A stretch of 61,070 nt of DNA, counting the filler. It is 7 parts of 7 records of this genome, joined end to end, with 100 filler letters (N's around TTAATTAATTAA, not from the genome) between each part and the next. Parts side by side here need not be neighbours in the genome. Positions count along the whole stretch, not along the records: positions 52,477 to 61,070 come from SRR31156797_29810; 6 more parts are not named here. The stretch is one strand, 5' to 3'. The translations under genes were made by a program, and so were the position numbers. A model generated the notes under the pieces. That model had not been told where the DNA came from, ran no database searches, and was given only the letters and a program-made list of their open reading frames with translations. The stretch's first letter is position 1; each line of letters starts with the position of its first letter. Below, piece by piece: positions 11,031 to 61,070 of this stretch.

Positions 11031-11130
11031 NNNNNNNNNNNNNNNNNNNNNNNNNNNNNNNNNNNNNNNNNNNNTTAATTAATTAANNNNNNNNNNNNNN
11101 NNNNNNNNNNNNNNNNNNNNNNNNNNNNNN
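11031..11130. other. Artificial contig spacer
   Basis: N44-TTAATTAATTAA-N44 (stops in all frames); gene style changes across it. Confidence 0.99.
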
Positions 11131-16876: not shown

Positions 16877-16976
16877 NNNNNNNNNNNNNNNNNNNNNNNN
16901 NNNNNNNNNNNNNNNNNNNNTTAATTAATTAANNNNNNNNNNNNNNNNNNNNNNNNNNNNNNNNNNNNNNNNNNNN
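16877..16976. other. Artificial contig spacer
   Basis: N44-TTAATTAATTAA-N44. Confidence 0.99.
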
Positions 16977-26368: not shown

Positions 26369-26468
26369 NNNNNNNNNNNNNNNNNNNNNNNNNNNNNNNN
26401 NNNNNNNNNNNNTTAATTAATTAANNNNNNNNNNNNNNNNNNNNNNNNNNNNNNNNNNNNNNNNNNNN
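26369..26468. other. Artificial contig spacer
   Basis: N44-TTAATTAATTAA-N44. Confidence 0.99.
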
Positions 26469-34593: not shown

Positions 34594-34693
34594 NNNNNNN
34601 NNNNNNNNNNNNNNNNNNNNNNNNNNNNNNNNNNNNNTTAATTAATTAANNNNNNNNNNNNNNNNNNNNNNNNNNNNNNNNNNNNNNNNNNNN
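34594..34693. other. Artificial contig spacer
   Basis: N44-TTAATTAATTAA-N44. Confidence 0.99.
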
Positions 34694-35422
34694 GAGCTGC
34701 TGGATCTGCCTGCTCAGGTTGCCGTGGGTGAGTTCCGCGCCCTTGGAAAGCCCGGTGGTGCCGCCGGTGTACTGGAGCATGGCCGTGTCGCTGAACGCGA
34801 GTTTGGGCTGCCTGGCAAGGGGGCCGGCCTGTTTGATGAGATGCTTCCAGGAATGGAGACGGTCTGCATTGGTGACCTTGGCCGCAAGCTTCTGTTTCTT
34901 TGCCACCAGGGGAAAGAGGAGGTTCTTGGGAAAGGGCAGGTAGTCGCCGATGGAGGTGTAGATGATATGCCGGATGGCGGTCTCTTTCCTCAGGGCCACC
35001 ATCCGGTCCGCCAGCAGATCCAGGGTGACGAGGAGGACCGCGTTGGAATCGTTGAACTGGTGGCGCAGTTCCGTGTCCGAATAGAGGGGATTGTTCATCA
35101 CGGCCACGGCGCCGATCTTGAGCGTTCCATAGTAGGCGACCACGCAGGGGATCACGTTGGGCAGGAGAATGGCCACCCGGTCTCCCTTTTTGATGCCCAG
35201 GGTCAGGAGGGTTGCGGCAAAGGCGTCCACCATGGCGCTTAAGTTTTTGTAGCTGAGGTCATACCCCATGAACGAGAGGGCCATGGCGTCGGGCCGCTCC
35301 TCGGCGCTGTGCTCGAGAAATTCGGGCAGGGTTCGGTTGTCATAGTTTACCTTTTCCGGAACGCCGGTGTCGTAGTGGGCCAGCCACGGCTTTAGCGAGT
35401 AGGGATCGATATCGGTCTTCAT
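34694..35422 (-). CDS. Long-chain fatty acid-CoA ligase (FadD-like); 3'-partial
   Basis: GDRVAILLPN, NPLY, AMP-binding LQYTGGTTGLSKG; RBS AGGAGG. Confidence 0.9.
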
Positions 35423-35776
35423 CTTCAGCCTCCTTTGTCTTCGCGATTATCGTCAAGTATTCCTGTGCTGTTGAAAACATGGCCTTGGGATTTAAGCTAA
35501 CTAAACTGTCCGGTGGATCTTGATGCCGCCGGTAATCTAACTGATCGAAATGAATGAATAATTGATTGGGGCCCCTTGCTTGTGGCAGGTCTGCCTGCCG
35601 CCAGCTAAATCAGAAAAGTGAACCCGATGAAATGGATCATACCTTGATCCTCCCTTATAATCAACAGATATCCCCGGATACGTTCGCAATTTCAGGACCG
35701 GCTCCCATGGGATGGTTCTTCAGGGAAAGCGCCTGACCCAACGACGTCCTCTTTTCCTGGTTGCAACGCCACCCAC

Positions 35777-35798
35777 CGTTACATAACGTTATGTAACG
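35777..35798. promoter_or_regulatory. Perfect 22-bp palindrome, probable transcription-factor site
   Basis: CGTTACATAAC|GTTATGTAACG in the divergent intergenic region. Confidence 0.6.
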
Positions 35799-35889
35799 CC
35801 ATCCCTCCCGAAAGAAGTCAATTTGATGCCTGCTTCATACTCCCTGTTATTACGGCCTGTTAGAAAATATCGGGTTCAATCCAAAGGGC

Positions 35890-35905
35890 TGGCCTGTCCT
35901 TTGCT
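35890..35905 (+). promoter_or_regulatory. Sigma54 (-24/-12) promoter for the porin gene
   Basis: TGGCCTGTCCTTTGCT has exact GG-N10-GC spacing, about 80 nt upstream of the porin ATG. Confidence 0.6.
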
Positions 35906-35986
35906 ATGGCTTGTTTCCCAGGATGAACCTCAGTTAAAGGGACTGATGTTTGTATGGTTATCTACAAAGCTGAAGGAGAGAAAAAG

Positions 35987-37444
35987 ATGAAAAAATGTGA
36001 AAGAGCGACACTGCGACCGTTGATCCGCATATCGGCCATCGCCATGCTGCTGGCCGCCATCGTGGCGATCAGTCCGTTGAGCGCGACAGCCATGACCTTT
36101 GACGCCGGCGAGATGGGAAAGATGAAGGTGAGCGGGGCCATCAAGGCAAGCTTTGGCGCGACCCAATACCTTGATTTCGTCGATAACAACACCAAGGGCG
36201 ATGATTCGGATTTCGATGGGACAAGGGAGCTGAGCCTTAAGCTTGACTGGATCGTGAACAGTCGCCTGAAAGGCGTTGCAAGCTTTCAGATTGGAGAAGG
36301 GTCCACGGGCGGTTATTTCGGCTCCACCGATGCCGCTGTGGGGGGAGAGGAGGACGGGGATCTCGTCTTTGAGCTTGATAAGCTCTATATCGATTTTACG
36401 ACCGATGGCGGCCTGAACTTCAAAATCGGTTCCCAGGGCTTTTGCCTCAATGAGATCGGCTACGGCTCCAACCTGTTCTATGAAACCCCGGCCGGTATCA
36501 CCCTGGCGGCGCCCCTGTCCCATATGGCATCCCTGGAGGCCGGCTGGTTCAGGATGGCGGATCTCATGGATGACTCTGAGCACAACACCGACGACCAGGC
36601 GGATTTCCTGTTTGCCAAACTGCCCCTCACGACGGGCGTTGTCAAGCTGACCCCATGGGCGGCCTATGCCAACATCCAGGAAGATGTGATCGACACCTCT
36701 GATCCGGGGAATTTCTGGAGCTACGCCTATTTTGACTATCCCGCGTTCCTCACCGGAGCCAACAGCGCCGTGGGCAATGCCAACCCCACGGATGACGTAA
36801 CCGCATACTACCTGGGCGCCAGCATCGAGTTATCCCCTAACGACAGCCTTTCCATCACGGCCAGCGCAACCTATGGAGACATGGACTGGGAAACGGCCAA
36901 TGTGGATGCCAGCATCGCGGGTTTTTTCACCGATCTTGTGGTTGACTACAAGATGGGGTTCATGACCCCTGAGTTCTTTGCATTTTACGGGAACGGCCCG
37001 GATGAGAATGATGATGACTTTGACATGATGCCGGTCCTTATCGGCGGTCCCACCTACACCACCTCCTACTTCGGCGGCTCCCGGTTTAACGACAACATGT
37101 TCGATTCCTATGATGCCTGCTATGCAACATCCATGTGGGCGGTGGGATTCAAGCTCAAAGAGATTGCAACAGGCGATAAGCTCACCCATGAGTTCCAGAT
37201 CATGTACGCTGAGGGGACTGCCGACGACGCCCTGTTCCAGTCCCCGGACGATATCCTCATGAACGAAGATGAGAGCCTTGTGGAGGTTAACTTCAATTCC
37301 GAATACCAGGTGATGAAGCACCTGGTGGTTGCAACGGAACTGGGGTATATCGCCTTTGACGAAGACAGCGATTACAACGAGGCCGTCAACGGCGATGTGG
37401 AAGATCTCTGGAAGATCGCTTGTGCCATCGAGCTGAGCTTCTGA
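35987..37444 (+). CDS. Outer-membrane porin (Desulfobacterota homotrimeric type), very acidic
   Basis: RBS GAAGGAG, signal peptide, LKGVASFQIG and LYIDF beta-strands, terminal ELSF. Confidence 0.75.
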   Translation: MKKCERATLRPLIRISAIAMLLAAIVAISPLSATAMTFDAGEMGKMKVSGAIKASFGATQYLDFVDNNTKGDDSDFDGTRELSLKLDWIVNSRLKGVASFQIGEGSTGGYFGSTDAAVGGEEDGDLVFELDKLYIDFTTDGGLNFKIGSQGFCLNEIGYGSNLFYETPAGITLAAPLSHMASLEAGWFRMADLMDDSEHNTDDQADFLFAKLPLTTGVVKLTPWAAYANIQEDVIDTSDPGNFWSYAYFDYPAFLTGANSAVGNANPTDDVTAYYLGASIELSPNDSLSITASATYGDMDWETANVDASIAGFFTDLVVDYKMGFMTPEFFAFYGNGPDENDDDFDMMPVLIGGPTYTTSYFGGSRFNDNMFDSYDACYATSMWAVGFKLKEIATGDKLTHEFQIMYAEGTADDALFQSPDDILMNEDESLVEVNFNSEYQVMKHLVVATELGYIAFDEDSDYNEAVNGDVEDLWKIACAIELSF

Positions 37445-37596
37445 CCCGGCTTGACCCGCGGCAGTCTCCCCGGTATAGTAATTTTACGACATTTCACAGG
37501 CTGCCGTAAGCCGGGTTTCATGGAATCGTGTCAGCCGGAGCCCCCCTCCGGCTGACATATTTGCAAAAACAGATGGCCGACAACCGGGATACCGCC

Positions 37597-40137
37597 ATGG
37601 AGAAAAAAAGACCCCTCTATTTTTGGGTGCTCAAGCGGCACCGCCTCTGGCAAGCGTCCATACTGGTGCTGATCCTATTGAGCATCTCCCTGCAGATTCT
37701 TCCTTTAGAGCTGCAGAAACGCATTGTCAATATTGCCATCACGTCCGGAGATGTCGGGCTTCTTATCCGCTACTCCCTTGGGTTCCTGGTCTCATTCATC
37801 GGTTTTGGCATCCTTAAATTCATCATCAACATGATGCAGGCGCAACTGGGGCAGACGATTTTGTTCGAGATTCGCAGGGAACTCTACGGCCACCTCTTGC
37901 AGCTGCCCCTGCATTTTTTCCGGGACCATCCCCCGGGAACGGTGATCAACGCCCTGTCCGGAGAGCTTTCAAGCGTGGGGCATTTCATCGGCACGGCATT
38001 GACGGTTCCCGTTACCCTGGGGCTGACACTGGTGGGCTTTGGCGCCTATATGGTGTACCTGAACCCTTTGCTTGCGGCCGTAAGCCTTTCCATTTACCCT
38101 GTGGAACTCTTTTTAATCCCCTGGCTCCAGAAGCGTTACAATGTTCATAACCGCCGCCGGATCAACACCCAGCGCAGGATGAGCGACAAAATAGACGAAT
38201 CCGTGTCCGGCATTGTGGAGATCCAGGGCAATGCCCTGTTTCCCCATGAGCAGAAGCGCTTTGAATCGTTTGCCGCCTCCCTGGTGGCGACCATGAAGCA
38301 GCTTTTTGCCATCAAGTACGGCATCAAAATGATCAACAACCTGTTTCAAAACTTTGGACCGTTTCTCCTCTTCATCCTGGGGGGCTTTCTGACCATCCAG
38401 GGCGAATTTTCCCTGGGGTCCCTCATCGCCTGCCTCTCGGCCTACGGAAAGGTGTATGATCCCTGGAAGGAGATGATCGAGTTTTACCAGGCCCACCAGG
38501 ATGCCGTGGTGCGCTATAACCGTGTGATGGAGACCTTCAGCCTTCAGCCTGATTTTTTGATCGCCCCCGGGGACCGCGGCATCGTCACCCTCAAGGGAGA
38601 GATCAAGGTGCGGCATCTCAGCTACGCCACCCCCAACGACGTCGAACTGCTCCATGACATCTCGTTCGACCTTCAACCCGGGGAGCACATGGCCATCGTG
38701 GGATTCTCCGGCAGCGGCAAGAGCACCCTTGCCATGATCCTGGGCCAGCTTTATGCCTACCGGAAGGGAGAGCTCCTGTTTGACGGCCACCACCTGAACC
38801 GGCTCACCAAAAAGGATATCAGCTGCAACATGGGCTATGTCCCCCAGCATCCATACCTTTTCGACACCAGCGTGGGGGAGAATATCATGCTGGAAACAGG
38901 GGCGGATGGTCCCTCCGGCCCGCCGGGAGAAGCCCTCCTTGAAGCCGTGGGGTTGACGGACGACATTCTCCGTTTTGCCCTTGAGAACAGGCTGAAGCCC
39001 TCCCGGGAAAAGCAGCTGGGGGAACGGATCATTCAATTCAGATGGACCCTCAGGCGCTCCCTTGATTCTGAGCTCTACGATAGGATCGAGCTCTTTGATG
39101 CCACCCGGTTTCTCAACCATACCGACCTCTATGAGAACCTGGTGTTCAGCGACCGGCTGGGCAAGGACCTGGCCCGGGAGACAATTGCCGAAAACAGGGC
39201 GTTTCGCAGTTTCCTCGACACTTTTGGCCTGGATGACGCCCTTGTCCGGCTGGGCTGCCAGATTGCCCGCCAATCGGCATTTTTGCTGAAAAATCTTGCG
39301 GACGACCCCTCGTTCTTCAAGGCCACCCCCATTGCCATCAATGAGATGGCCCACTATGAAACCGTTGTGGAACGCTATCCGGACGGAGACCCCGGGGCCA
39401 TGCGCCCACGGGACAAGACCCTTTTTCTCTCCCTGGCCCTGACCTACGTGCCGGCCAGGCACAAGGTCGCGGCCGTGCCGGGGCGGATGCGGGAAACCAT
39501 CGTGTCATTTCGCAAGGCGTTCCTGGATCGCTTCATCCAGATCGATTTTGATCAATGTACCCGTTCCATGGACGCCCTCCGGGCCGGCAAGCCCATGGAC
39601 AAGGATCCCCTCACCTTTGGAAATGGAACCGATGCCGTGTTTTGTCCCGGGGAGTACCTTCCATCCAAGTCCGTGCTGGAAAACCTGCTGTTCGGATGCG
39701 TAAAAACAGAATACGCCTCCACCTATCCCCGGATCCGGGCCGCCGTGATCAAGGTATTGAAGAGCGAGCCCGGGATGTATGCCGAACTGATCGGTACCGG
39801 GCTTGATTTCAGGGTGGGCAGCAAAGGAGAGCGGCTCTCCGGGGGGCAGAAGCAGAAACTCGCTCTTGCCAGGGCCTTTGGAAAACAACCGCCGATTCTC
39901 ATCCTTGACGAGGCAACCGCAAGCCTTGACAATGTCTCCCAGAAAAAGGTGCAGGACTATATCACGGATCACCTCAAGGGGCGCTGTACGGTGATTTCGG
40001 TCATTCACAGAACCGATCTGCTCCCCTTTTATGATAAAATTATTGTGCTGAAGGAAGGAAAGTTGGTAGAGATGGGGAAATACCGGGATCTGATGGAAAA
40101 GAAGGAATCCTTTTATGAGCTTGTGCAGGGCAGGTGA
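37597..40137 (+). CDS. ABC exporter (TMD-NBD fusion) with a large insertion inside the nucleotide-binding domain; alternative start 37573
   Basis: Six-TM ABC membrane domain; Walker A GFSGSGKS (38701), Q-loop VPQHP, signature LSGGQKQK only at about 39835, Walker B ILDEAT, H-loop IHR. Confidence 0.88.
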   Translation: MEKKRPLYFWVLKRHRLWQASILVLILLSISLQILPLELQKRIVNIAITSGDVGLLIRYSLGFLVSFIGFGILKFIINMMQAQLGQTILFEIRRELYGHLLQLPLHFFRDHPPGTVINALSGELSSVGHFIGTALTVPVTLGLTLVGFGAYMVYLNPLLAAVSLSIYPVELFLIPWLQKRYNVHNRRRINTQRRMSDKIDESVSGIVEIQGNALFPHEQKRFESFAASLVATMKQLFAIKYGIKMINNLFQNFGPFLLFILGGFLTIQGEFSLGSLIACLSAYGKVYDPWKEMIEFYQAHQDAVVRYNRVMETFSLQPDFLIAPGDRGIVTLKGEIKVRHLSYATPNDVELLHDISFDLQPGEHMAIVGFSGSGKSTLAMILGQLYAYRKGELLFDGHHLNRLTKKDISCNMGYVPQHPYLFDTSVGENIMLETGADGPSGPPGEALLEAVGLTDDILRFALENRLKPSREKQLGERIIQFRWTLRRSLDSELYDRIELFDATRFLNHTDLYENLVFSDRLGKDLARETIAENRAFRSFLDTFGLDDALVRLGCQIARQSAFLLKNLADDPSFFKATPIAINEMAHYETVVERYPDGDPGAMRPRDKTLFLSLALTYVPARHKVAAVPGRMRETIVSFRKAFLDRFIQIDFDQCTRSMDALRAGKPMDKDPLTFGNGTDAVFCPGEYLPSKSVLENLLFGCVKTEYASTYPRIRAAVIKVLKSEPGMYAELIGTGLDFRVGSKGERLSGGQKQKLALARAFGKQPPILILDEATASLDNVSQKKVQDYITDHLKGRCTVISVIHRTDLLPFYDKIIVLKEGKLVEMGKYRDLMEKKESFYELVQGR

Positions 40138-40141
40138 CACC

Positions 40142-40612
40142 ATGGACAGTCAACACCAGGAAAGCGTTATTGAACAGAACCTGAACATACTCAGGGGCGT
40201 ACCGGCATTCAGTCATCTGGAGTATGACATCCTCAGCCTGTTTGCCCTGGTGGCTGACCGGAAAAAGTATTCCCGGGATGAGATCATCTTTGCCAAGGGC
40301 GATCTTCTCAACACGGCGTTTATCATCATCCGGGGAGAGGTGGAGCTGTTTATCGGGCCCCGGGACCGGAGAAACAGCCTGGAGCGCCTGGGCCCGGGCA
40401 ATTTTTTCGGCTACATGGCGCTCCTGGCGGAAATACGGTCCAACCTGGGCGCCTGCGCCCTTTCCCATTGCGAGCTTTTGACCTTGGACAGGAAGAATTT
40501 CCGCAGGGTGATGATCCGTCACCCGGAAAGCTGCATCACCATCGTGGAAAAGCTGATCCAGGCCCGCATGCAGCGCATGGACAGCCACATGAAGATTCTG
40601 CTTGAATCCTGA
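40142..40612 (+). CDS. Stand-alone cyclic-nucleotide-binding domain protein
   Basis: LRGVPAFSHL, IIFAKGD, FIIIRGEV, LGPGNFFGYMALL...RS; no HTH; starts 4 nt after the ABC stop. Confidence 0.85.
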   Translation: MDSQHQESVIEQNLNILRGVPAFSHLEYDILSLFALVADRKKYSRDEIIFAKGDLLNTAFIIIRGEVELFIGPRDRRNSLERLGPGNFFGYMALLAEIRSNLGACALSHCELLTLDRKNFRRVMIRHPESCITIVEKLIQARMQRMDSHMKILLES

Positions 40613-40631
40613 GCCTGCCGGAAGACCGGGG

Positions 40632-41444
40632 TTATGCGTTAGGATGGGGCGTATTCAATACGCCTGTCCGGGCGAGGGTGGTAAAGGTTGCCACCTCGAT
40701 CTTACGTTGGGATACGATCTGCCGGAGAAGCATCTCAAGAAAAAGAAAGGCGGCGTCGTTCATTCGCATATGATGGAGCATGATGCCGCACACTCCGCTC
40801 TCCATGCCCTGGCGCAACTCGTTGAACAGGGCCTGCCATCCGGGATCGAAGGATGGCTCCTTCCGGGTGTGGAGATCCACATGAATGGAGATCTCCCTCA
40901 GTCCGGAAGGCGGCCCGGGCGCGTTGCCTGTGCTCCGGGAGATGCCTTCAAACCCGAGGCTGACCAGGGCGGCCATGGTTTCCCGGGTGCACCGGTTCCA
41001 GGGCGGGGTGAAGAAGGGCGCGAACCGGTGGTTCAAAACAGCCTCCAGCCGCTGTTGTCCTTTGGCAAGATCATTCCGGATATCACTGACGGGCCGGCCC
41101 GGGCCGAACTCCTGCTTCTTCCCCTTGATTTCGTGGTTCACATGCCGCCACCCGTGCTGGTGCCAGCAAAAGAGATCGCCCCCCCTGTGGGCAAAGGGCG
41201 CCAGGGCCTCCCACCGTTGACGGGTCAGCCAGGTGGGCACCACGGCCAGGCAGAGGGGAAGCCGGTATTGTAGGAACAGTTCCATCATCCTGGTAAAATT
41301 GCGGCCCGGCACCCCGATATCATCGGCCCTGAAAAAAAACAGGACTTTGTTTCGTTTTTCCATGCCCCGGGCCAGGGTGTGCCCAAGGCGCTCCTGAATT
41401 GCTGCGGACCTTGCGCCCTTGAAATCATCGTAGATCGCGTTCAT
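40632..41444 (-). CDS. Polysaccharide deacetylase (NodB/CE4-like) family protein
   Basis: FFRADD, LAVVP, HQHGWRH, FTPPWNR, GIMLHH. Confidence 0.8.
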   Translation of the reverse strand: MNAIYDDFKGARSAAIQERLGHTLARGMEKRNKVLFFFRADDIGVPGRNFTRMMELFLQYRLPLCLAVVPTWLTRQRWEALAPFAHRGGDLFCWHQHGWRHVNHEIKGKKQEFGPGRPVSDIRNDLAKGQQRLEAVLNHRFAPFFTPPWNRCTRETMAALVSLGFEGISRSTGNAPGPPSGLREISIHVDLHTRKEPSFDPGWQALFNELRQGMESGVCGIMLHHMRMNDAAFLFLEMLLRQIVSQRKIEVATFTTLARTGVLNTPHPNA

Positions 41445-42172
41445 GGTCTTCCATTCTCCTCTATCCAGTTACGGACCGCCCTGGCCCCCCCCAGGTCCAG
41501 GCGTTGGCGGATCTGTTTTTTTTCTTTCGCTAGGCGCTCCCGGATGATTCCGGCCAGGATTTTCGGTACCAGGCTTTCTTCTTCCAGCAGGGAGATGTCC
41601 GCAAAATCCGCTAAAGAAGCGGCCCGCAGGCGCTGTTCCCGGTTCTGGTCAAAGGGCCAAACCAGGGACGGCACCCCGGCTGCCACAAGGTTCATGCAGG
41701 TGTTATAGCCGGCCATGCTGATGGAAAGATCCGCGGCCGACAGGAGGGAGATGAAATCGTTCCAGAAGGGTGCCACACTTACCCCTTCCCCAGCCAGGGC
41801 ATACACCCGTTCGGTCTCCTTCTTGTCCATGTAGGGCCCTGTGAGAACCATCATCCTCACCCTGTTCCGGTCCGGGAGCAGGCCGTGGGCACGGATCGCG
41901 GCCCGGAGCAAGGGCGCTCCCACCGTTCCGCCCCCTGCGCTGACCACCACAAGGGATTGGTCCGGCGCAATCCCCAGGTCCGGCCTCACCCGGGCCACGG
42001 TTGCGGGATCCGGCAATGGGGTGACAAAACCGGTATACGCCATGGGCACCCGAATGTCATCCATCCTTGAAAAGCTGGTGTCCAGCCGGATCAGCCGGGG
42101 ATCGGAATGGATCAGCAGGGCGTCAAACCATTGGTTCAGGGTGTCCACCACCCGGGTTTCATAGGCGCCGGC
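41441..42172 (-). CDS. GT-B glycosyltransferase (GT28 C-terminal-like); 5'-partial
   Basis: LIHSDP, YTGFV, VVSAGGG, TGP, ISMAGYNT, EQRLRA; ATGA overlap with the deacetylase. Confidence 0.82.
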   Translation of the reverse strand, partial: AGAYETRVVDTLNQWFDALLIHSDPRLIRLDTSFSRMDDIRVPMAYTGFVTPLPDPATVARVRPDLGIAPDQSLVVVSAGGGTVGAPLLRAAIRAHGLLPDRNRVRMMVLTGPYMDKKETERVYALAGEGVSVAPFWNDFISLLSAADLSISMAGYNTCMNLVAAGVPSLVWPFDQNREQRLRAASLADFADISLLEEESLVPKILAGIIRERLAKEKKQIRQRLDLGGARAVRNWIEENGRP

Positions 42173-42272
42173 NNNNNNNNNNNNNNNNNNNNNNNNNNNN
42201 NNNNNNNNNNNNNNNNTTAATTAATTAANNNNNNNNNNNNNNNNNNNNNNNNNNNNNNNNNNNNNNNNNNNN
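42173..42272. other. Artificial contig spacer
   Basis: N44-TTAATTAATTAA-N44. Confidence 0.99.
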
Positions 42273-52376: not shown

Positions 52377-52476
52377 NNNNNNNNNNNNNNNNNNNNNNNN
52401 NNNNNNNNNNNNNNNNNNNNTTAATTAATTAANNNNNNNNNNNNNNNNNNNNNNNNNNNNNNNNNNNNNNNNNNNN
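52377..52476. other. Artificial contig spacer
   Basis: N44-TTAATTAATTAA-N44. Confidence 0.99.
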
Positions 52477-54115
52477 CCCAGAGGGGGCTGTTCTCGGACA
52501 GATAGGAGTAGAGGATGAGGCAGCCCCTTTCCCGGGCTTTGGCGGACATCCTCTCCAGTATCTTCACCCCCGATGAGTCGATATCGGAGATCCTCTTCAG
52601 ATCCAGGATGATGGAACGGGCGCCGCTCTCTATGAGTCGGTCCATCCGCTCAGACAGTTCGTCAGCCGTGCCGAAGAAAAGGGAGCCCTCCAGCTCGGCC
52701 AGGAATATCTCATCCCCCCTGGAAGTCAGGATCTCCATATCACGGGCGGGCCGCTGGGTCTTGGATCGTATACCCGCCCCCGTATGGATCCTGCGCAGCA
52801 TGGAGACCTTGCTCTTCCGGTAGACATAGAGGAAGAAGGAGATGGCCATGCCCGCCAGAACGGCGGAGATCAGGTTGCTGAGCAGGGTGATGGAGATCAC
52901 CATCAGGACGATGGTCAGGTTCCCCAGCAGGGCCGTGTTCAGCCCTGTCTTCCGGCTCCAGATCCGGCGGCAGAGATCGATCAGCCAGGTATCGAACATA
53001 TTCACGGCGATGATCATGACCAGCCCGGCGATCACCGACAGGGGGATGAAACGGATCAGGGGACGGAGGACCGTAGCGATGACCAGAACGAAAAGGGTGC
53101 ACAGCAGAGCGGACGCCCGGCTCCGCCCTCCGCTCAATACATTGGTCATGCTGCGGGTGGAAGAGCCTCCCCCCACCAGGCCGCCGGCGAAGACGGTCAA
53201 AAGATTCCCCACCCCCTGCACAATGAGCTCCCGGTTGGCGTCCACCGACTCATAGGTGATGTTCTGGATGGCCAGGGAGCTCAACAGGGTATCGGTGGAC
53301 GAGAGGATGGCGATGCTGAAAGCGGTCACCAGGATCCCCGTAAGGGAGGCGGCGAGCAGGCCGCTGCGGAAGATCTCGGGATTGCTCGTCAGATAGAAGA
53401 TATTGCGGTAGCTCAGCTCGATCGAACCCAGAGTCGCCCCCGGATCGGAACTCAGGCCGAAACGGATCAGCAGATGATGGATGACGCATCCGGCCAGGAT
53501 CACCGGGACATGAACGGGGACCCTGCGGATCAGCCTCCTCAGGATGAGGAAGAGCAGGACCGTCAGCAAGGAGAGGGACAGGGCGTAGGGATTCAGCTCG
53601 TCCAGAGCCCGGAAGAATCCCCCGCTCCTCTTCTCGACGCCGATGATGTTCCAGGCCTGGCTTTTCAGGAGGAGAAGGACCTTGCTGTTGATCACGCCTA
53701 CGATCACCGGATAGGAGATGTACTTAATGATATCCCCCAGGCGGAAGAGCCCCAGCAGGGTCTGAATCAGGCCGGCTGCCAGAAGAAGGATGAAGAGCAG
53801 GCTCAGGGCCTGGTTCGCAGGGACGGCCGGGTCAAGGGAAAGGAGCTGTCCCAGAAAGGCGGCCACCGCCAGAGCGACCCCCGCCCGGGGACCGGATATC
53901 AGCCCCGTCGTCCGTGAGAAGAGGGCGGAGAATCCGCCCAGAACGATGGAACAGATCCAGCCCGAGAGTATGCCCATGCTGATGAAGGCGGGTCCCAGAG
54001 GGGCGAAGGCGACCATGCCGAACACGATATTCCCCGGCAGGGAGATCACCGCCGTAGACAGAGCGGCGAACAGTTCCTTTCCGAATTCCGGAGCGTTCCC
54101 GGGGACTCTGGTCAC
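52477..54115 (-). CDS. SulP/SLC26 anion transporter with STAS domain; 3'-partial
   Basis: ISGP, LGLFRLGDIIKYISYPV, DANRELIVQGVGN, IPLSVIAG; STAS LEGSLFFGTA...LDLKRISDIDSSG. Confidence 0.92.
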
Positions 54116-54122
54116 AAACGGC

Positions 54123-56228
54123 TCACTTCCTGGTCAGCTTGGTTACGCCGTTCCAGTCAGCGGGGACCGAGTCCGGATACTTCCTGAAGAAGCTGCAGCG
54201 TTTGATGAAGAGTTTGACAGCCTCATCGTCTGGACCGAAGTTTTTCTTCAGATGAAGAAAGTAGCGCAGTGAGTTGGTCCAGTCCCGCTTCAGGTAGAGC
54301 CCCAGGGCCTTTTCATAGATCTGAACATACTCCTCACGCCTGCCGCCGGGCCTGTTTTCGGCCTCGGAAATCAGCTCGTAGATCCGGGTTCCCTCGTTCT
54401 TGCCCTTCACCGCCACGATGTCCAGAAAGCGGCAGTAGAACTGGTCCTTCACCTCTCTCCAGGTATCCTCGTCGATGATGATCTTCGTGCCGTAGAGCTT
54501 GTTGATCCCCTCGATGCGGGAGGCCAGATTGACGTGGTCTCCGATGGCGCTGTAGTTGATCCGGTCCGAAGAGCCCACGTTGCCGACGACCACCCGGCCC
54601 GTGCCAATGCCGATGCGGGTTTCCATCACCGGCTTGTTGTAGCTCTGCCACTGATCGTTCAGACTGCTCAGCCTCTCCTGGCAGCGGAGGGCGGTATGGC
54701 AGGCCCGGGCGCTGGCGTCCTCCAGCCTGACGGGAGCCCCCCAGAAGGCCATGATGGAGTCGCCGATGTATTTGTCGATAGTCCCCGCCTCCTCCATGAT
54801 GATTCGCGACAGCTCGTCGAAGTACTCGGACAGGTGCTGCATCAGGAAGTCGGAGGAGAGGTTCTCGCTTATGGTGGTGAATCCCTTGATATCCGTGAAG
54901 AAAAGGGTCAGCTTCTTGGGAACGCCTCCCACCTCCACCTCCTCGCCGTTGTCGATCAGCTGGCGCACCAGATCGGCGGGGACGTATTTCCGGAAGGCCT
55001 TGAGCCCCTGGACCGCATTGAACAGGGAGACGCTCATATTGTTTATCTCCACGATGGAGGAGCTCACCTTGTCGGAGATGTCCAGATCGAAGTTCTGAAG
55101 CTTCTCATTCTGCCCGGCCAGCTCTTCAAGGGGAGCCGTTATCCTGCCGGAGATGTAGAAGATCACCACGATGGACAGGAGGAAGATGCAGACGATGGCC
55201 AGGGCGATCATCAGGATGACCCGGTACACGCCCTCCAGGATATCCCGTTCGGAAATGACCGAGATGATCTTCCAGTCCACGCCGAGGTCCTCGGAGATAT
55301 CCGAAACCCTGAAGAAGTAATTCTGCCGGCCGTACTTGAAGTTGAACTCCCGCAGCCCCTCGCTCTTATAGCGCAGAAAGGCGGAGATGACATGCACGTC
55401 ATCCAGGCCGTCCAGCTTCTTGATCCTTTTGACGGTGCTGCTTTTGCCGCCCTCGTCGACCACGGTCTCCTCCACGAGGATCTCTTCGAAATTCTGGGAG
55501 GCGATGATCTGCTCCTTATCGTCGACGATATAGAGCCGGCTGTTTTCGCTGATGGTCTGCTCCTTCAGAAAGGAGGAGAGCTTCTCCACGGGGATGTTCA
55601 CGCAGACCACGGCGCCCTTGTCCCCCGATTCGGTCAATACCGGATAGGCGCAGCCGATAACGGGCTTCTGGCTTGTGGTGGCCACATAGGCCTCGGTCCA
55701 GTAGTAGCGCTCCATAATCCCCGTGTTCTTGTACCAGACCCGGGAGCGGGGATCGAAGGTGGGGATCTTCTCCTTCCTGTCCACAATCTCGAAATTCTCA
55801 TCCCGCTGGATCCGGAACTCCTCGGGGGGCGTTTTGTCCCGGTTTATCAGCCTGGTCTCCAGAACCGGAGTGCGCCGGACCTGCACGTAGTTGCCCACCC
55901 GGTCGGCGATGAAGTAGCTCTCCAGCTGCTCGGTCATCAGAATGGGATTCCACATAAAATCCCAGAGCTTTTCATGATCCTCCACAAGCCCGTCGTAGCG
56001 GATCAGGGGCTCGGCCAGACGGGTGAAGGAGGAAGGGATGCCCAGAAAGGAGTTTGTCCTCTCTTTGACCTTTCCCACCACCTCGCTGGAGATCTTCTCC
56101 GAGAGCCCGAACACGATCTTCGTCGTCTGCATATAGAAGATGACCGTGACCAGTACGCCGGAGATCATCATCAGGGAGACGAAGATCTGCAGAAGCCTGA
56201 TCCTGAAGGTCTGATTTCGTTTAAACAT
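54123..56228 (-). CDS. Membrane-bound class III adenylate cyclase (TM - Cache-like sensor - TM - HAMP - cyclase - helical tail)
   Basis: RSRVWY and WTEAY Cache-like motifs; ITAPLEEL HAMP; catalytic FTDIKGFT, DKYIGD, RIGI, YSAIGDHVNLASRIE. Confidence 0.92.
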   Translation of the reverse strand: MFKRNQTFRIRLLQIFVSLMMISGVLVTVIFYMQTTKIVFGLSEKISSEVVGKVKERTNSFLGIPSSFTRLAEPLIRYDGLVEDHEKLWDFMWNPILMTEQLESYFIADRVGNYVQVRRTPVLETRLINRDKTPPEEFRIQRDENFEIVDRKEKIPTFDPRSRVWYKNTGIMERYYWTEAYVATTSQKPVIGCAYPVLTESGDKGAVVCVNIPVEKLSSFLKEQTISENSRLYIVDDKEQIIASQNFEEILVEETVVDEGGKSSTVKRIKKLDGLDDVHVISAFLRYKSEGLREFNFKYGRQNYFFRVSDISEDLGVDWKIISVISERDILEGVYRVILMIALAIVCIFLLSIVVIFYISGRITAPLEELAGQNEKLQNFDLDISDKVSSSIVEINNMSVSLFNAVQGLKAFRKYVPADLVRQLIDNGEEVEVGGVPKKLTLFFTDIKGFTTISENLSSDFLMQHLSEYFDELSRIIMEEAGTIDKYIGDSIMAFWGAPVRLEDASARACHTALRCQERLSSLNDQWQSYNKPVMETRIGIGTGRVVVGNVGSSDRINYSAIGDHVNLASRIEGINKLYGTKIIIDEDTWREVKDQFYCRFLDIVAVKGKNEGTRIYELISEAENRPGGRREEYVQIYEKALGLYLKRDWTNSLRYFLHLKKNFGPDDEAVKLFIKRCSFFRKYPDSVPADWNGVTKLTRK

Positions 56229-59200
56229 CCAGATACCCCACCCAGTTCTTTTCGGTCAGTTCGGGACTGTTCCTGGCCACCGTAAGCTTCCTGCCGAGTA
56301 GCTCAACCGAGCGTTCCCGCCCCTTCAGCCTCTTTCTCAGATAGTCCACGTATTTCTGCGCCCCGTCCCAGTCCTTTCTCCTGTAGAGGCCGAAGGCCGT
56401 TTCGTAGATCTTGATAAAGGTCAGCCTGCTCTCCGACAGCTGGTCCCGGCGGGAGGCGCAGAGCTCGTAGATCTTCATCTTCTTGTTGCCGCCGGGCAGC
56501 CGGATGATGTCCAGCAGACGGCAGACCGCCTCGTCCCCCAAGGCCTTTTTCACATCCGAGCTGATGATGACCTTCGTCCCGTAACGGGGATTCAGGGAAC
56601 TCAGATACTGGCTCACCGGCAGGGTGCGTCCCAGTATGATGTTCTCCTTCACCAGCTGCTGTTTCTGATTCAGGATCAGGACCTCCTCGGCATGGATGCC
56701 TATCCCGCCGCCCTTCCGCAGAGGGGAATCGCTCTGACCGGGACGGGAGCCGTTTCCCTCCCTGAGGCTGTTCACGTCCTCCAGGCGGCTCTGAAAGAGA
56801 AGGGCTGCGGCGCCGGCATGCGCCACCGGACCGTCCAGGGAATTCCGGGAGTTCCAGGAGACCTGGAGGTTCCCTCCCCTGTAACGCAGCAGCTGACCGT
56901 TCTCCTCGGCGATGATCTCATGCATCAGGCCGCTCTGGAGAACGAAGTCCTTCACCCCCGTCTCCACATTGCCGACCGACGCGATATCGTAGAGCGGGGC
57001 GTCCAGGCTGAGAACGCTGTAGTAGGAGACCCGCTTCATATCCGAAAGGATCTGATCCCCCACCCTGTCCAGGCGCTTGAAGGAGTTCATGGTCCGCTCG
57101 TCGATTCCCTTGCGTTCGACGACCTCATCCCGCCTGCCCGCACTGACAAGGAAGAGTAAGCCCAGAACCAGGGTGAAGACACCGAAGATACCGATACCGC
57201 CGGAAGTGCTGTTCCCGGCAAAGGCGATGATGGCTCCCAGAACCATGGGGCCCATGATATGGCCGAAACGTTCCAGAAAGGTGTAGACCGCGATCATGGG
57301 ACCGTATCCGTACTGCTCCGCGGATCTCGTCTTGGTGATCTGCGTCACGATGGGCGCGCTGATGAGGCCGTTGGCGACGCCGATGGTCAGAAGGCCGATC
57401 ACCGCCAGAATGGGATAGGCCGAGTCCAAAAACAGCCCCTGATAACCGATCAGCATCATCCCCAGGCCGCCGAATACGGCGCTCAGGAAGAGGACCGACC
57501 GGGTGTTGCCGCTCCTGTCCGCCCGTTTGGAGGCGATCTTGGTCACCAGCATGGAGATCAGGAAGAAGAGCATGAGGAAGCGCCCGATCTCCTCCTGAGA
57601 GTAGCGGAGGGAGGCCAGAAGCAGGGGTACGGCGAAGTTGACGACCCCTGTGATGCCCATCTTGGCGGGGATGCCCGTCAGAAAGAGGACCTTCAGGAAG
57701 CTGCCGTCCCGGAACACCTTGGGAATGTTCTTCAGCTCCAGCTTCTTGCCCGTAGCCTTGCCGGAGGCGTCGGCCTTGACCGAGGGAACCAGAAGCAGCA
57801 GATAGACGAAACCCGTTATGCTGATCAGGGAGGAGAGCAGAAAGAGCCTGCGGAAGCCCATGAACACATACAGGAGGGCACCGATGCCGGTACCGCCGAT
57901 GAGCGCGCTGTTCCGGGCGATCACCTTGATCGCCGCCCCCTGGGTTCTCTTCTCCCTGGGGGTAACCGAAAGCACATAGGACTGGAATCCGATCAGGAAA
58001 CAGCCCTGGCCGAGACCGCTCATGGCCCGCCCTGCGGTCAGCAGGAGGATGGAGTGGGAAGACGCGACGATGATGCAACCGGCCACCTCCGCCAGGAATC
58101 CCAGAGCCATCACATGCTTTATCCGCCCCCCGGCGGCGATGTTTCCAGCGGGGATCAGGGAGAACGCGAAGAAGAGGTAGTAGATGGTAAAGGGCACCGA
58201 GGAAACCAGACCGCTGTTCAGCTCCCTGACCAACAGGGGCAGGAAGGGCACGGCCATGGAGGATACGAAGACCACGAGGAAATAGGCCGCCTTGATCAGC
58301 TCCAGGGAGACGGCCGGGTCGATCCGCTCGGGCAGCTCGCTGCCGCCTCTGCGGTTCAGAGACTCAGCGTAGGCCAGGCCGACGTTGAGGAAGATCATGG
58401 CGATCAGACTCGCGCCCACAAGAAGGGCCAGGAAGTTGATGATGCTGTCCAGGACGGCGTTGCGGACCTCCGTTTTGGGTACGCTGACCACCACCATCAG
58501 ATTCTCCAGGGCTCCGCTCCCGGCGGCCCCCGCCCTCTCCAGGGGGATGTAGTTGATGATCAGCCGCAGGTTATCGGGAGAGAAGATCTTCCCGATCATG
58601 CTCTCGTTGGAGTCATAGCGGATCTCCTGGGCGGCGGGGGCCTGCACATCCGTGCCCACCACCCGGTTGATGGAGACCGATTCCACAAAGGCGTAGCGCT
58701 CCTTGAAGTTGGCCAGGATATCGTTGATATGGGACAGGTCGTCAAACTCTATCCCCAGCTCCCTGACCGGAATCAGGCGCTCCGAGAGCAGGTTTCCGAT
58801 GGCCTCGGTCTTACCCCTCACTCCCGTTTCGTAGATATCGATGGTGACGAAGGTGACATAGCCCCCCAGCAGGATGAACAGGATCAGATAGAGGGATTTG
58901 ACGAAGATGTTGCGCTTGCGCCTGGACGCCACCGTACTGTTCTTCAACCGGGAGGTCGCTATGTAAAAGAAGATCGTCAGGAGTCCCGAGAAGATCATGA
59001 GGGCGATGTAGACCGAGCGGTAGGAAGAGGTTATAAAGGCGGACGAGCGCTCCTGGTTCAGGTAGATCACAAGCTCCCCCGCCCGGCTGCCGTCCTCCAG
59101 CAGGATATCCCGGGTCAGGCGGAAGATGTTCCCCGACTCATGGATCCGGACGCCCTCCCCGCCGGAGACCTCTATCTTCGAAGGATTCTCGTCCAGATCG

Positions 59201-59514
59201 GCGGGCGGGCTGTAGTCGCCGCTCACGTAGACAGACTTGTCCTGGGCGTCAAGGATCTCCAGGCTCAGCACATCCTCATTGGATTCGGAAACGATGGAGG
59301 CCAGATTGTCGTAGCCGCTGTACATGGTGATGGGAAATCCAGCATCCAGAAAGGGGGTGATCACATCCAGAACCGTATCGCTCTGGAGGATGCTGGTCTC
59401 CAGCCGGAAACGGATATAGGTACGCCGGGTCTCCCCCTGGCCGACCACGACCAGAAGCAGGAGCGTGGAACAGAGAATGACGGCGATAGGCAGTTTCTTG
59501 ATAAGGTTTTTCAT
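56221..59514 (-). CDS. Multidomain membrane protein: two extracytoplasmic domains + MFS transporter + degenerate class III cyclase-like domain
   Basis: TM-flanked soluble loops in aa ~25-360; about 12 TM MFS region with GRAMSGLGQG and ADRSG; C-terminal ~270 aa colinear with the neighbouring cyclase (YGTKVIIS, CRLLDII, IYEL, YETAFGLY..KDW, NWVG). Confidence 0.82.
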   Translation of the reverse strand: MKNLIKKLPIAVILCSTLLLLVVVGQGETRRTYIRFRLETSILQSDTVLDVITPFLDAGFPITMYSGYDNLASIVSESNEDVLSLEILDAQDKSVYVSGDYSPPADLDENPSKIEVSGGEGVRIHESGNIFRLTRDILLEDGSRAGELVIYLNQERSSAFITSSYRSVYIALMIFSGLLTIFFYIATSRLKNSTVASRRKRNIFVKSLYLILFILLGGYVTFVTIDIYETGVRGKTEAIGNLLSERLIPVRELGIEFDDLSHINDILANFKERYAFVESVSINRVVGTDVQAPAAQEIRYDSNESMIGKIFSPDNLRLIINYIPLERAGAAGSGALENLMVVVSVPKTEVRNAVLDSIINFLALLVGASLIAMIFLNVGLAYAESLNRRGGSELPERIDPAVSLELIKAAYFLVVFVSSMAVPFLPLLVRELNSGLVSSVPFTIYYLFFAFSLIPAGNIAAGGRIKHVMALGFLAEVAGCIIVASSHSILLLTAGRAMSGLGQGCFLIGFQSYVLSVTPREKRTQGAAIKVIARNSALIGGTGIGALLYVFMGFRRLFLLSSLISITGFVYLLLLVPSVKADASGKATGKKLELKNIPKVFRDGSFLKVLFLTGIPAKMGITGVVNFAVPLLLASLRYSQEEIGRFLMLFFLISMLVTKIASKRADRSGNTRSVLFLSAVFGGLGMMLIGYQGLFLDSAYPILAVIGLLTIGVANGLISAPIVTQITKTRSAEQYGYGPMIAVYTFLERFGHIMGPMVLGAIIAFAGNSTSGGIGIFGVFTLVLGLLFLVSAGRRDEVVERKGIDERTMNSFKRLDRVGDQILSDMKRVSYYSVLSLDAPLYDIASVGNVETGVKDFVLQSGLMHEIIAEENGQLLRYRGGNLQVSWNSRNSLDGPVAHAGAAALLFQSRLEDVNSLREGNGSRPGQSDSPLRKGGGIGIHAEEVLILNQKQQLVKENIILGRTLPVSQYLSSLNPRYGTKVIISSDVKKALGDEAVCRLLDIIRLPGGNKKMKIYELCASRRDQLSESRLTFIKIYETAFGLYRRKDWDGAQKYVDYLRKRLKGRERSVELLGRKLTVARNSPELTEKNWVGYLDV

Positions 59515-60704
59515 TCTCCCGTCCTCTCCACAGTCTCGCCGAAGTTCTTCAAGACCTCTCCCTCATAGCCGTAGATAAATCTTGCGTTCTCAAAGAGCTG
59601 AAAGGGAAAGGTGAAGCCTATCCTCTTGGCGGTCCGGAAGTTGATGGCTATATCAGGCGGCGTGACGATCCCCACCGGCAGCTCGCCGGGGAGGATGTTC
59701 CCCTTCAGGATCTCAATGGCGTACTGGGTAGCCAGCTCCGCCACCGAAGCCCTGTTGATTCCTATGGCCATCAGGGGACTCTCCAGGCCGGATCCTACCG
59801 TATCGGGGACCGAGGAGATCACGGGAATCTGCCTGGTGCTCTCGGACAGGGTCTCCAGTTCGGTAAAGATATTGGTGCTGGAGGTGAGCCAGAACACCGA
59901 GTGGTTCATCCCCGGGTCGCTGCCCTGGAAGTAGCTGAAAGCCTCTCCCAGCTTCTCCCGGATGGTATCCTTGATATCCTCCCCCTCCAGGGTGGGGATA
60001 GCGCATTTGTACACCCCGATGTCCATATCCAGAGATTCCAGATACTCCACGAAGGGATCGACCTCGGCGTCCACCACCTTGGTATGGTCCGGATCGTAGA
60101 GGATGGCGATGCTCTTCAGATCGGGCACGGCCTTGAACAGCCACTCCGTGTTGATCTTCATGGGAACGTTAACCGAGGTAAAGGCGATGTTAGTACCGCT
60201 TCCCGATTTGTAGTCGCCGACCTGACCGTTCAGAACGGGATCCTTGTTGACGCAGGTGACCACGGGGATCTCCTCCCCCTGGAAGTGGTTATGGGCATGG
60301 GCCGTGGATTCGGAGCCCATGGCGATCAGGATATCCGCATCGATCATCCTGGTGAACTCAAACACATCCCGAGCCAGGTCCTCCCTCTTGTTGCAGTTAT
60401 AGGTATAGACCTCGATATCGGGGATGTGTCTGCCCATCACCTTCAGAAAGGTGTTGAAAGCGGTGATATAGCTGGACGACTTCTTGGCAATCAGCACGAC
60501 CACGGTATAATCGAATTCGGCGACGTCCCTCCGCCAGTAACGGCGCCCCGGAATCCCCTGGTCATAGCTATCGTAATCCCAGAACTCCTCATTTCCGTCT
60601 GTGAACTTCAGCCAGGAAAGGTCCGTCGGCTCCGCCGAGAAAACAAACAAAGGGTTGAGTATAAAAACCAGGAAAAGGATCCTGAAAACAAGCCTGAAAC
60701 GCAT
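59511..60704 (-). CDS. Periplasmic solute-binding protein (ABC_sub_bind-like, type I fold)
   Basis: Signal peptide; ILIAMGS, IPVV...DPV..G, NIAFTS, VPDLKSIAILYD, IPVIS, ILKG..PGELPV, INFRTAKRIG; RBS AAGGGG; ATGA overlap with the next gene. Confidence 0.85.
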   Translation of the reverse strand: MRFRLVFRILFLVFILNPLFVFSAEPTDLSWLKFTDGNEEFWDYDSYDQGIPGRRYWRRDVAEFDYTVVVLIAKKSSSYITAFNTFLKVMGRHIPDIEVYTYNCNKREDLARDVFEFTRMIDADILIAMGSESTAHAHNHFQGEEIPVVTCVNKDPVLNGQVGDYKSGSGTNIAFTSVNVPMKINTEWLFKAVPDLKSIAILYDPDHTKVVDAEVDPFVEYLESLDMDIGVYKCAIPTLEGEDIKDTIREKLGEAFSYFQGSDPGMNHSVFWLTSSTNIFTELETLSESTRQIPVISSVPDTVGSGLESPLMAIGINRASVAELATQYAIEILKGNILPGELPVGIVTPPDIAINFRTAKRIGFTFPFQLFENARFIYGYEGEVLKNFGETVERTGE

Positions 60705-60990
60705 CGTATGCCCCTTATGAGTATCCAACTTTTTGTCTTTATTGTAATTATTATATCACAGCAATTCCATTATTTATCGACACGAAAGCCCATTCCCTTG
60801 AATACCAGGGCCATTGCCTGAACGCCCGGGCGCTCGGACCTCCGGGAGCAAAATACGCGGAATACCCGTTGCCGGCCCTTGAGCAAAATATGAGTTAAAT
60901 CCTATGATACATGGCATTAGTCATCACTAAGCCATCACCGGAATATAACAAAATCAATATCGTACTTGATAGAATACAGGAAAGGGAACA

Positions 60991-61070
60991 ATGAGAAACT
61001 ATCTGACGGCTCAGGAAGTCTCGAAAGAGCTCGTTTCAGTGGGAGTAAAGAAAGCGAACAGGCCCCTGGG
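60991..61070 (+). CDS. Probable formate/nitrite transporter (FNT) N-terminus; 3'-partial
   Basis: RBS AGGAAAGGG; MRNYLTAQEVSKELVSVGVKKANRPL resembles FNT N-termini. Only 26 codons are visible. Confidence 0.45.
   Translation, partial: MRNYLTAQEVSKELVSVGVKKANRPL

Follow-up and report, generated by a model that had tools for sequence, protein, structure and literature searches.

An MFS protein fused to a degenerate class III cyclase homology domain beside an intact adenylate cyclase

The DNA analysed here, referred to below as the window, is a stretch of 61,070 nucleotides (nt) made up of seven separate contigs, the last of which (52477-61070) carries the locus under study. Four genes lie there head to tail on the minus strand, encoding a PF04392 binding protein, a major facilitator superfamily (MFS) fusion protein, a cyclase, and a SulP/STAS permease (genes 1 to 4, Table 1). 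The stop of gene 1 and the start of gene 2 overlap by 4 nt, the stop of gene 2 and the start of gene 3 by 8 nt, and gene 4 begins 7 nt past the stop of gene 3. Residues 806-1097 of the gene 2 protein are a true class III cyclase homology domain (CHD) with a helical tail, and we term this degenerate domain the pseudo-CHD (pCHD). The initial annotation of this DNA had placed a catalytically degenerate cyclase domain, fused to an MFS transporter and next to an intact paralog, at 56221..57040. These coordinates are exact, corresponding to residues 826-1097 plus the stop codon of the open reading frame (ORF) 56221-59514 on the minus strand.

Sequence and fold of the pseudo-cyclase domain

The C-terminal 292 residues of the gene 2 and gene 3 proteins share 28% identity over 243 residues (BLASTP, E 5e-30). 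Gene 3 is indeed the intact paralog that had been proposed, with a PF00211 match at E 3e-20 and all six canonical residues (D446, K486, D490, S560, N567, R571). A phmmer search with the domain against 1.84 billion representative sequences returned 2606 matches at E<=1e-3. A Pfam scan of 12 of the 150 listed matches found PF00211 in ten, while the other two, P0005 and P0007, are MFS fusions that score on MFS_1 only; they are the two best long matches. Likewise, the C-terminal ~290 residues of the gene 2 protein have no match in Pfam or NCBIfam. PF00211 gives none at E<=0.1 with the whole gene 2 protein, nor at E<=10 with the domain alone, either from the window or from the related locus L006 of a Spirochaetaceae metagenome-assembled genome (MAG).

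Active sites of class III cyclases are built across the dimer interface, with an Asp pair from one subunit and Lys, Asp/Thr/Ser, Asn, and Arg from the other. These columns are near-invariant among the aligned cyclases, including gene 3. In a 68-row MAFFT alignment, K486 of the neighbour pairs with R877 of pCHD, D490 with G881, S560 with I959, N567 with P966, and R571 with Y970; together with P1007, these are the replacements at the catalytic sites. The exchange of the substrate Lys for Arg and the loss of the second metal Asp (DKYIGD to LRYRGG), as well as the loss of the transition-state Asn and Arg, are thus borne out. The motifs quoted for these claims are all present, namely FFTDIKGF (443), DKYIGD (485), and YSAIGDHVNLASR (559) in the cyclase, and LRYRGG (876), NIILGRTLPVSQY (958), YGTKVII (978), IYEL (1015), and NWVG (1090) in the gene 2 protein. 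The statement that the first metal Asp is kept stands for the position, which is acidic in seven of eight family members, but not for the residue. The gene 2 protein reads LSLDAPLYDI from residue 835, and MAFFT pairs D446 with D843 in a conserved x-D-I motif and not with D838. The earlier placement is, on this alignment, probably five residues off.

The losses extend to the entire family, which comprises eight full-length fusion proteins from searches of a 5.8-billion-protein set, of the 1.84 billion representatives, and of genomes. None of the eight has the second metal Asp (G, P, or Q at this position), the transition-state Asn, the transition-state Arg, or the substrate Lys (Arg in seven, Thr in one), and the Lys of the VKGK loop is replaced by Pro in all. 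The first metal position is occupied by D in six members, E in one, and G in one. Moreover, the replacements differ between two subclades (G/P/Q at the second Asp; P/L/V/G/S and Y/F/V/S at the further positions); consequently, the former pocket has not been preserved as such. Of the hallmarks of a catalytic class III domain, pCHD has neither the two metal Asp nor Lys, Asn, and Arg, and it stays below the Pfam gathering threshold. Judged by its residues, pCHD is predicted to be non-catalytic.

The domain adopts the class III cyclase fold. An AlphaFold2 (AF2) model computed with the 68-row alignment reaches a predicted local distance difference test score (pLDDT) of 89 and a predicted template modelling score of 0.88; active cyclases make up 64 of the 68 rows and weigh on the model, and the homology itself rests on sequence. 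The single-sequence model is uninformative (pLDDT 40). In a Foldseek search against Protein Data Bank (PDB) structures, the top matches of the model are all class III cyclases (e.g., OaPAC, 4yut, E 4.5e-13). A PDB sequence search with the domain found only 2w01 (E 0.085). VIA-align places 190 of the 195 residues of CyaB (3r5g) onto model residues 20-219 (Z 22.1, root mean square deviation 2.8 Å). Thus, the entire domain is present, including the beta4-beta5 arm. The VIA-align matches also include 8sl4, 4ni2, and 3uvj, from the group of pseudo-heterodimeric class III cyclases. Model residues 220-292 form three helices, which are the highest-confidence segment of the model and have no match in the fold lists. 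This tail belongs to no Pfam family, lies outside the region covered by the PDB fold matches, and is common to pCHD and the aligned dCache/CHASE2-HAMP cyclases, spanning ~75 residues.

The gene 2 protein is an MFS member by its core of 12 transmembrane (TM) helices, which scores above the Pfam threshold and is the best-conserved section of the protein. N-terminal to the core, a hydropathy scan places four extra helices at residues 8-26, 168-186, 207-225, and 358-376. The two loops of ~130-140 residues between them (27-167 and 226-357) are probably periplasmic. Residues 1-400 are kept in all relatives of the protein; a feature resemblance of this region to sCache_3-type clusters (Atlas) is noted as a lead only. 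The helical linker between core and pCHD is poorly conserved, with 1 of 20 positions kept in at least seven of the eight members.

Table 1. Features of the window. Positions count along the whole stretch; aa, residues of the encoded protein.
Feature	Position	Strand	Basis or remark
Gene 1, secreted substrate-binding protein (SBP), 405 aa	59511..60728	-	PF04392 ABC_sub_bind, E 4.3e-14
Gene 2, MFS-pseudo-cyclase fusion, 1097 aa	56221..59514	-	ORF, Pfam, hydropathy
N-terminal region, aa 1-400, four extra hydrophobic helices and two loops	58315..59514	-	Hydropathy scan; no Pfam match
MFS_1 core, 12 TM, aa 410-756	57247..58287	-	PF07690, E 1.2e-32, 113.7 bits (cut-off 33.4)
Helical linker, aa 801-825, between the final MFS helix and the first strand of the cyclase fold	57040..57114	-	AF2 helix, fragment residues 2-19
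pCHD, aa 826-1020	56455..57039	-	Sequence, alignment, AF2, fold matches
Three-helix tail, aa 1021-1097, ending in W-x-G	56224..56454	-	Alignment, AF2 (pLDDT 94-98)
Gene 3, intact dCache-HAMP-class III adenylate cyclase, 701 aa, with helical tail as in gene 2	54123..56228	-
Catalytic domain of gene 3, aa 439-612	54393..54914	-	PF00211, E 3e-20
Tail of gene 3	54126-54353	-
Gene 4, SulP-family permease with STAS domain	52477..54115	-	Cut by the contig end at 52477
Linkers between contigs, N44-TTAATTAATTAA-N44	11031-11130, 16877-16976, 26369-26468, 34594-34693, 42173-42272, 52377-52476

Conservation and genomic setting

Locus L006 has the same gene order as the window, with a binding protein followed by an MFS-pCHD protein (1062 residues) and a dCache cyclase (704 residues), separated by gaps of 10 and 1 nt. 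Identity to the window counterparts is 44, 46, and 50%, respectively. The pairing of the degenerate domain with an intact paralog is therefore conserved, the same operon being present in the window and in L006. Gene 4 lies outside the conserved unit, as a CDGSH protein takes the place after the cyclase in L006. The cyclase of the window combines Lys486 and Ser560, which we take to be the pattern of bicarbonate-responsive class IIIb cyclases, and it stands beside a permease gene of the SulP family, which includes bicarbonate transporters. A bicarbonate role of gene 4 was considered and dropped, as the gene is not conserved in L006.

MFS-pCHD fusions are rare. A search with the window protein finds an MFS relative in 1 of 38 genomes of the order of the L006 MAG and in 3 of the 401 genomes sampled from its phylum, and among these only the L006 MAG has the C-terminal domain. 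A scan of genome contigs with the single protein gave no match, and an alignment query then found loci. The other 33 genome loci, mostly from Alphaproteobacteria and including one Thiotrichaceae and one further bacterium, encode relatives of ~800 residues without pCHD. The same holds for three loci from metagenomes and for another genome of a spirochaete, which brings the domain-less loci to 37; the metagenome scan yielded domain-less relatives only. A cyclase gene neighbours the MFS gene in 2 of 2 loci with pCHD versus 0 of 35 loci without it, counted where the MFS gene is essentially whole and within the flanks examined.

Counting L006, there are 34 genome loci, and in 33 of them the binding-protein gene adjoins that of the MFS relative. 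Beside the SBP-MFS pair, 24 of the 37 domain-less loci have a D-Ala-D-Ala-ligase-like ATP-grasp gene, 12 a GAF-PAS-GGDEF-EAL gene, and five a hybrid histidine kinase; in addition, L002 has a GAF-PAS kinase plus a receiver protein. The transporter fold is thus genetically coupled to signalling enzymes, as is characteristic of a transporter-coupled sensor. On sequence and gene order, the pair of SBP and N-terminally extended MFS protein looks like an undescribed sensor or transporter module. Cyclase paralogs are abundant in the fusion-bearing lineage, with 16 PF00211 matches in the 4.9 Mb genome that carries L006 (G001). Among the phmmer matches, the 1154-residue protein P0136 represents a different transporter-cyclase fusion, which joins a PF00375 sodium:dicarboxylate symporter, a dCache domain, and an intact Guanylate_cyc domain in one chain.

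Within the fusion family, P0003 is 94% identical to the window protein, P0005 and P0155 are ~65% identical, and P0156, P0157, P0007, and the L006 protein are 46-48% identical. Over residues 806-1097, the identity to the window falls from 0.90 (P0003) to 0.51 (P0005), 0.27 (P0007), and 0.22 (L006); the corresponding values for the MFS core are 0.96, 0.76, 0.65, and 0.67. A quick IQ-TREE analysis of 70 domains groups the five pCHDs it contains in a single clade (SH-like approximate likelihood-ratio test 99), on branches of 2.2-3.3 changes per site, compared to a median of 0.76. The path from window to L006 amounts to ~6.3 changes per site for pCHD versus 0.92 for the neighbouring cyclases, which themselves form a clade with support 99. 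Duplication of the neighbour is a candidate origin only, as very long branches attach the pCHD clade to the active cyclases at the midpoint root.

Despite this divergence, the domain is maintained and not neutrally decaying, the alternative that had been named for it. The reading frame and the terminal W-x-G are kept in all eight members. The pCHDs of window and L006 still align with 31% identity over 159 residues (BLASTP, E 3e-23), and that of L006 matches its own neighbouring cyclase at E 7e-19. Positions kept in at least seven of the eight members number 41 of 292 and fall mainly into the C-terminal half of the fold (20/90) and the tail (13/77). Nearly all are core residues that pCHD has in common with active cyclases, without an evident pCHD-specific surface patch. 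A contig from a related strain (run X4, 8949 nt) shows 281 differences over 54172-61070 and no indel within genes 2 or 3; its indels are a 3-nt insertion in the signal region of the binding protein and two intergenic ones. At the 40 of 384 variant sites displayed, a small sample selected by the tool, 22 changes in gene 2 are synonymous and three non-synonymous, with four and none, respectively, in the pCHD part. These sequence comparisons indicate that pCHD is under weaker but real purifying selection.

The remaining observations concern the contig and the stretch. The gene 1 protein begins with a signal-peptide-like stretch. A promoter and terminator scan gave nothing above chance. RNA-library contigs (run X6) overlap parts of all four genes, including 56388-56813; as they are no proof of transcription, they are not used as expression evidence. 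Within gene 3, a ~45-nt stretch at 54729-54786 is matched by many unrelated contigs in four read runs, after which the sequences diverge. The stretch corresponds to the active cyclase's motif T-I-D-K-Y-I-G-D-x-I-M-A-F-W-G, and the short matches are most likely cyclase genes of other organisms and not a rearrangement. The seven contigs of the window are joined by six artificial linkers (Table 1), and genes beyond 52477 are therefore uninformative about the pseudo-cyclase locus. GC content at third codon positions (GC3) is 0.77-0.84 for the genes on the last contig and 0.31-0.50 for those on the others, except for contig 34694-42172 (0.71-0.74). One of the other contigs carries SusC/SusD/GH10 genes and another a TYW2/TRM5-type gene. 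Given these differences in GC3 and gene content, the contigs are likely to stem from different organisms. ORFs that cross a linker are artefacts, such as the initial 19 codons of '52421..54115'.

Possible roles of pCHD

We favour, with middling confidence, a role of pCHD as a non-catalytic adaptor or decoy that ties the SBP-MFS sensing unit to the dCache-HAMP cyclase. In such a mechanism, the binding protein would load its ligand and dock on the MFS protein at its periplasmic loops, and the MFS core would then shift its conformation. The linker helix would move pCHD together with the tail, and pCHD would engage or release the catalytic domain or the tail of the cyclase, engagement switching cyclic AMP (cAMP) synthesis off. 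The contact between pCHD and cyclase, the direction of regulation, and the ligand are what we infer in this scheme. The direction follows from the half-sites: pCHD is short of residues from each set, so that canonical pairing with a CHD would leave every active site incomplete. Consequently, such pairing could only silence the cyclase and not build an enzyme like the C1/C2 pair of mammalian adenylyl cyclase. This bears on the initial annotation, whose wording of a heterodimer with the active cyclase suggested a C1/C2-like pairing. By the half-site rule, neither combination of pCHD and neighbour gives a full site of the C1/C2 or soluble guanylate cyclase (sGC) type, and the proposal is qualified to that extent.

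Four lines of evidence support the adaptor or decoy reading. pCHD and the cyclase co-occur strictly, the operon is tight in two lineages, pCHD retains both the half of the fold with the arm and the tail that its partner also has, and the domain-less module recurs beside other second-messenger and phosphorelay enzymes.

A number of points weigh against it. The gene context covers two independent fusion members, so that the co-occurrence amounts to one evolutionary event. pCHD evolves ~7 times faster than the domain of its neighbour, which fits relaxed constraint. BLASTP does not align its N-terminal half between window and L006, and although part of the canonical dimer interface lies in this half, only 7 of its 105 positions are conserved. 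Further, the small size of the displayed variant sample limits the strain comparison, and P0158 (784 residues, 52% identity) stops directly behind the MFS core, being either a natural domain-less form within the spirochaete clade, where pCHD would be dispensable, or an incomplete record. dCache-HAMP cyclases are expected to be tethered homodimers, and a pCHD from outside would need to compete with the tethered partner. Finally, the binding of pCHD to the cyclase is itself putative. A complex prediction with pCHD (292 residues) and cyclase residues 412-701 gave interface scores (ipSAE) of 0.00 and 0.00, but was made without supplied alignments or controls and counts neither way.

pCHD might instead only self-associate, or cap, stabilise, or dimerise the MFS protein without contacting the cyclase, the operon link reflecting shared regulation or a shared ligand. 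Self-association would suit the retained arm and C-terminal half of the fold, both of which belong to CHD-CHD dimers, and also the conserved core positions without a surface patch of their own, and the cyclase, with its own dCache sensor, needs no second input. On the other hand, about 35 relatives do without any C-terminal domain, so pCHD is unnecessary for the integrity of the MFS protein, and pCHD is found only where the cyclase occurs. We regard this explanation as possible but rather unlikely.

A second alternative, that pCHD is an allosteric ATP/cAMP/GTP sensor which gates the MFS protein, with feedback from the cAMP of the neighbour, appears improbable. The first metal position is acidic and the substrate Lys position is Arg in seven of eight members, and the degenerate site of mammalian cyclases does bind a small molecule, forskolin. 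However, the second Asp, the Asn, the Arg, and the phosphate-loop Lys are absent from all eight, with replacements that differ between subclades; a class III site requires two subunits; and the half with the pocket is the least conserved part of the domain. The nucleotide-sensing gate, which the initial annotation had offered as its other option, is thereby weakened.

Least likely is that pCHD is the leftover of a formerly active transporter-cyclase fusion, on its way to loss and without function today: the long branches, the lack of detection by Pfam, the absence of the domain from P0158, and a GC3 of 0.83, which makes long open frames cheap on this contig, would fit, but in all eight members the frame stays open up to the final residues, at a divergence that saturates synonymous sites (MFS identity 65%), and the conserved positions, the confident AF2 model, and four of four displayed strain variants being synonymous speak against drift.

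Known systems and biological meaning

Among the closest known systems are mammalian membrane adenylyl cyclase C1/C2 and sGC alpha/beta. As at our locus, a degenerate domain is combined with a competent partner of the same fold, arm included. The C1/C2 and sGC domains are complementary, one supplying the metal Asp pair and the other Lys/Asn/Arg, so that one site survives. pCHD, in contrast, lacks both sets and no site could form; moreover, the two domains reside on separate proteins, one of them fused to an MFS core. After the fusion proteins themselves, the closest relatives of pCHD are dCache/CHASE2-HAMP cyclases with a tail (P0006, P0010, and others). They share with it the tail and the YGT, R-x-x-D, IYEL, and W-x-G motifs, but retain every catalytic residue and are detected by PF00211, neither of which holds for pCHD. 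Degenerate GGDEF/EAL domains serve as receptors or adaptors in cyclic di-GMP (c-di-GMP) signalling and often keep nucleotide binding. The logic is the same, a second-messenger enzyme domain recycled for a non-catalytic purpose, with another fold and another messenger. Nucleotide binding, in view of the residues lost, is unlikely for pCHD.

Transporter-type sensors are known from UhpC/UhpB and from yeast Snf3/Rgt2. The CrbS family, in the accessible passages of its description, fuses an SLC5 symporter domain to a histidine kinase (PMC5715377). Such systems resemble the locus described here in using a secondary-transporter fold as, or coupled to, the signal input, with a cytoplasmic extension to a signalling enzyme. 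They differ in that the output here would be a class III cyclase, the coupling would run through a dead copy of its catalytic domain, and a dedicated periplasmic binding protein is present.

AdvA of Acinetobacter baumannii and PA4961 carry non-catalytic nucleotidyl-cyclase-like domains, according to the accessible part of a preprint (bioRxiv 10.64898/2026.04.03.716176). There, the AdvA domain is described as making protein-protein contacts and acting in cell division with ZipA, and as having no dimerisation arm and no detectable cyclase sequence similarity (10.64898/2026.04.03.716176). On that description, AdvA shares with the gene 2 product that it is a membrane protein with a cytoplasmic CHD-like domain devoid of catalytic residues and with an extra C-terminal helical element. 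pCHD, in contrast, keeps the arm, is paralogous to its neighbour, and sits beside a cyclase. We therefore rejected pCHD as an AdvA-type domain, the extra C-terminal helices being the only shared element. AdvA nevertheless provides a precedent, within the limits of that source, for a non-catalytic CHD serving as an interaction domain. Searches of the main text of open-licence PubMed Central papers and bioRxiv preprints turned up no account of an MFS protein fused to a cyclase domain or of one that depends on a binding protein, and the accessible main-text passages of a survey of actinobacterial cyclases (PMC2447327) include none on inactive domains.

The MFS-pCHD protein has a real, rare, Pfam-undetected architecture and, from its sequence and setting, a plausible regulatory role. 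As the domain is invisible to Pfam, such domains are missed by routine pipelines, and standard annotation files the widespread pairing of SBP and N-extended MFS protein as 'MFS transporter' and 'ABC substrate-binding protein'. We suggest, tentatively, that the dead paralog might act as an 'anti-cyclase': carried by an SBP-dependent MFS transceptor, it would form an inactive heterodimer, and the state of the transporter would control cAMP synthesis. Equally tentative is the broader form of this idea, in which the SBP and the N-extended MFS protein would be an unrecognised sensory input module, perhaps plugged into cAMP in Spirochaetota and into c-di-GMP and phosphorelay in Alphaproteobacteria. 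Bacterial class III cyclases are usually regarded as self-contained homodimers under their own N-terminal sensors. Pseudo-enzyme regulation in trans is well known for kinases and GGDEF/EAL domains, and we know of no prior description of it for bacterial adenylate cyclases. If the proposed role is true, a dead paralog maintained by selection in the operon of its active relative would add this mode of regulation to bacterial adenylate cyclases.

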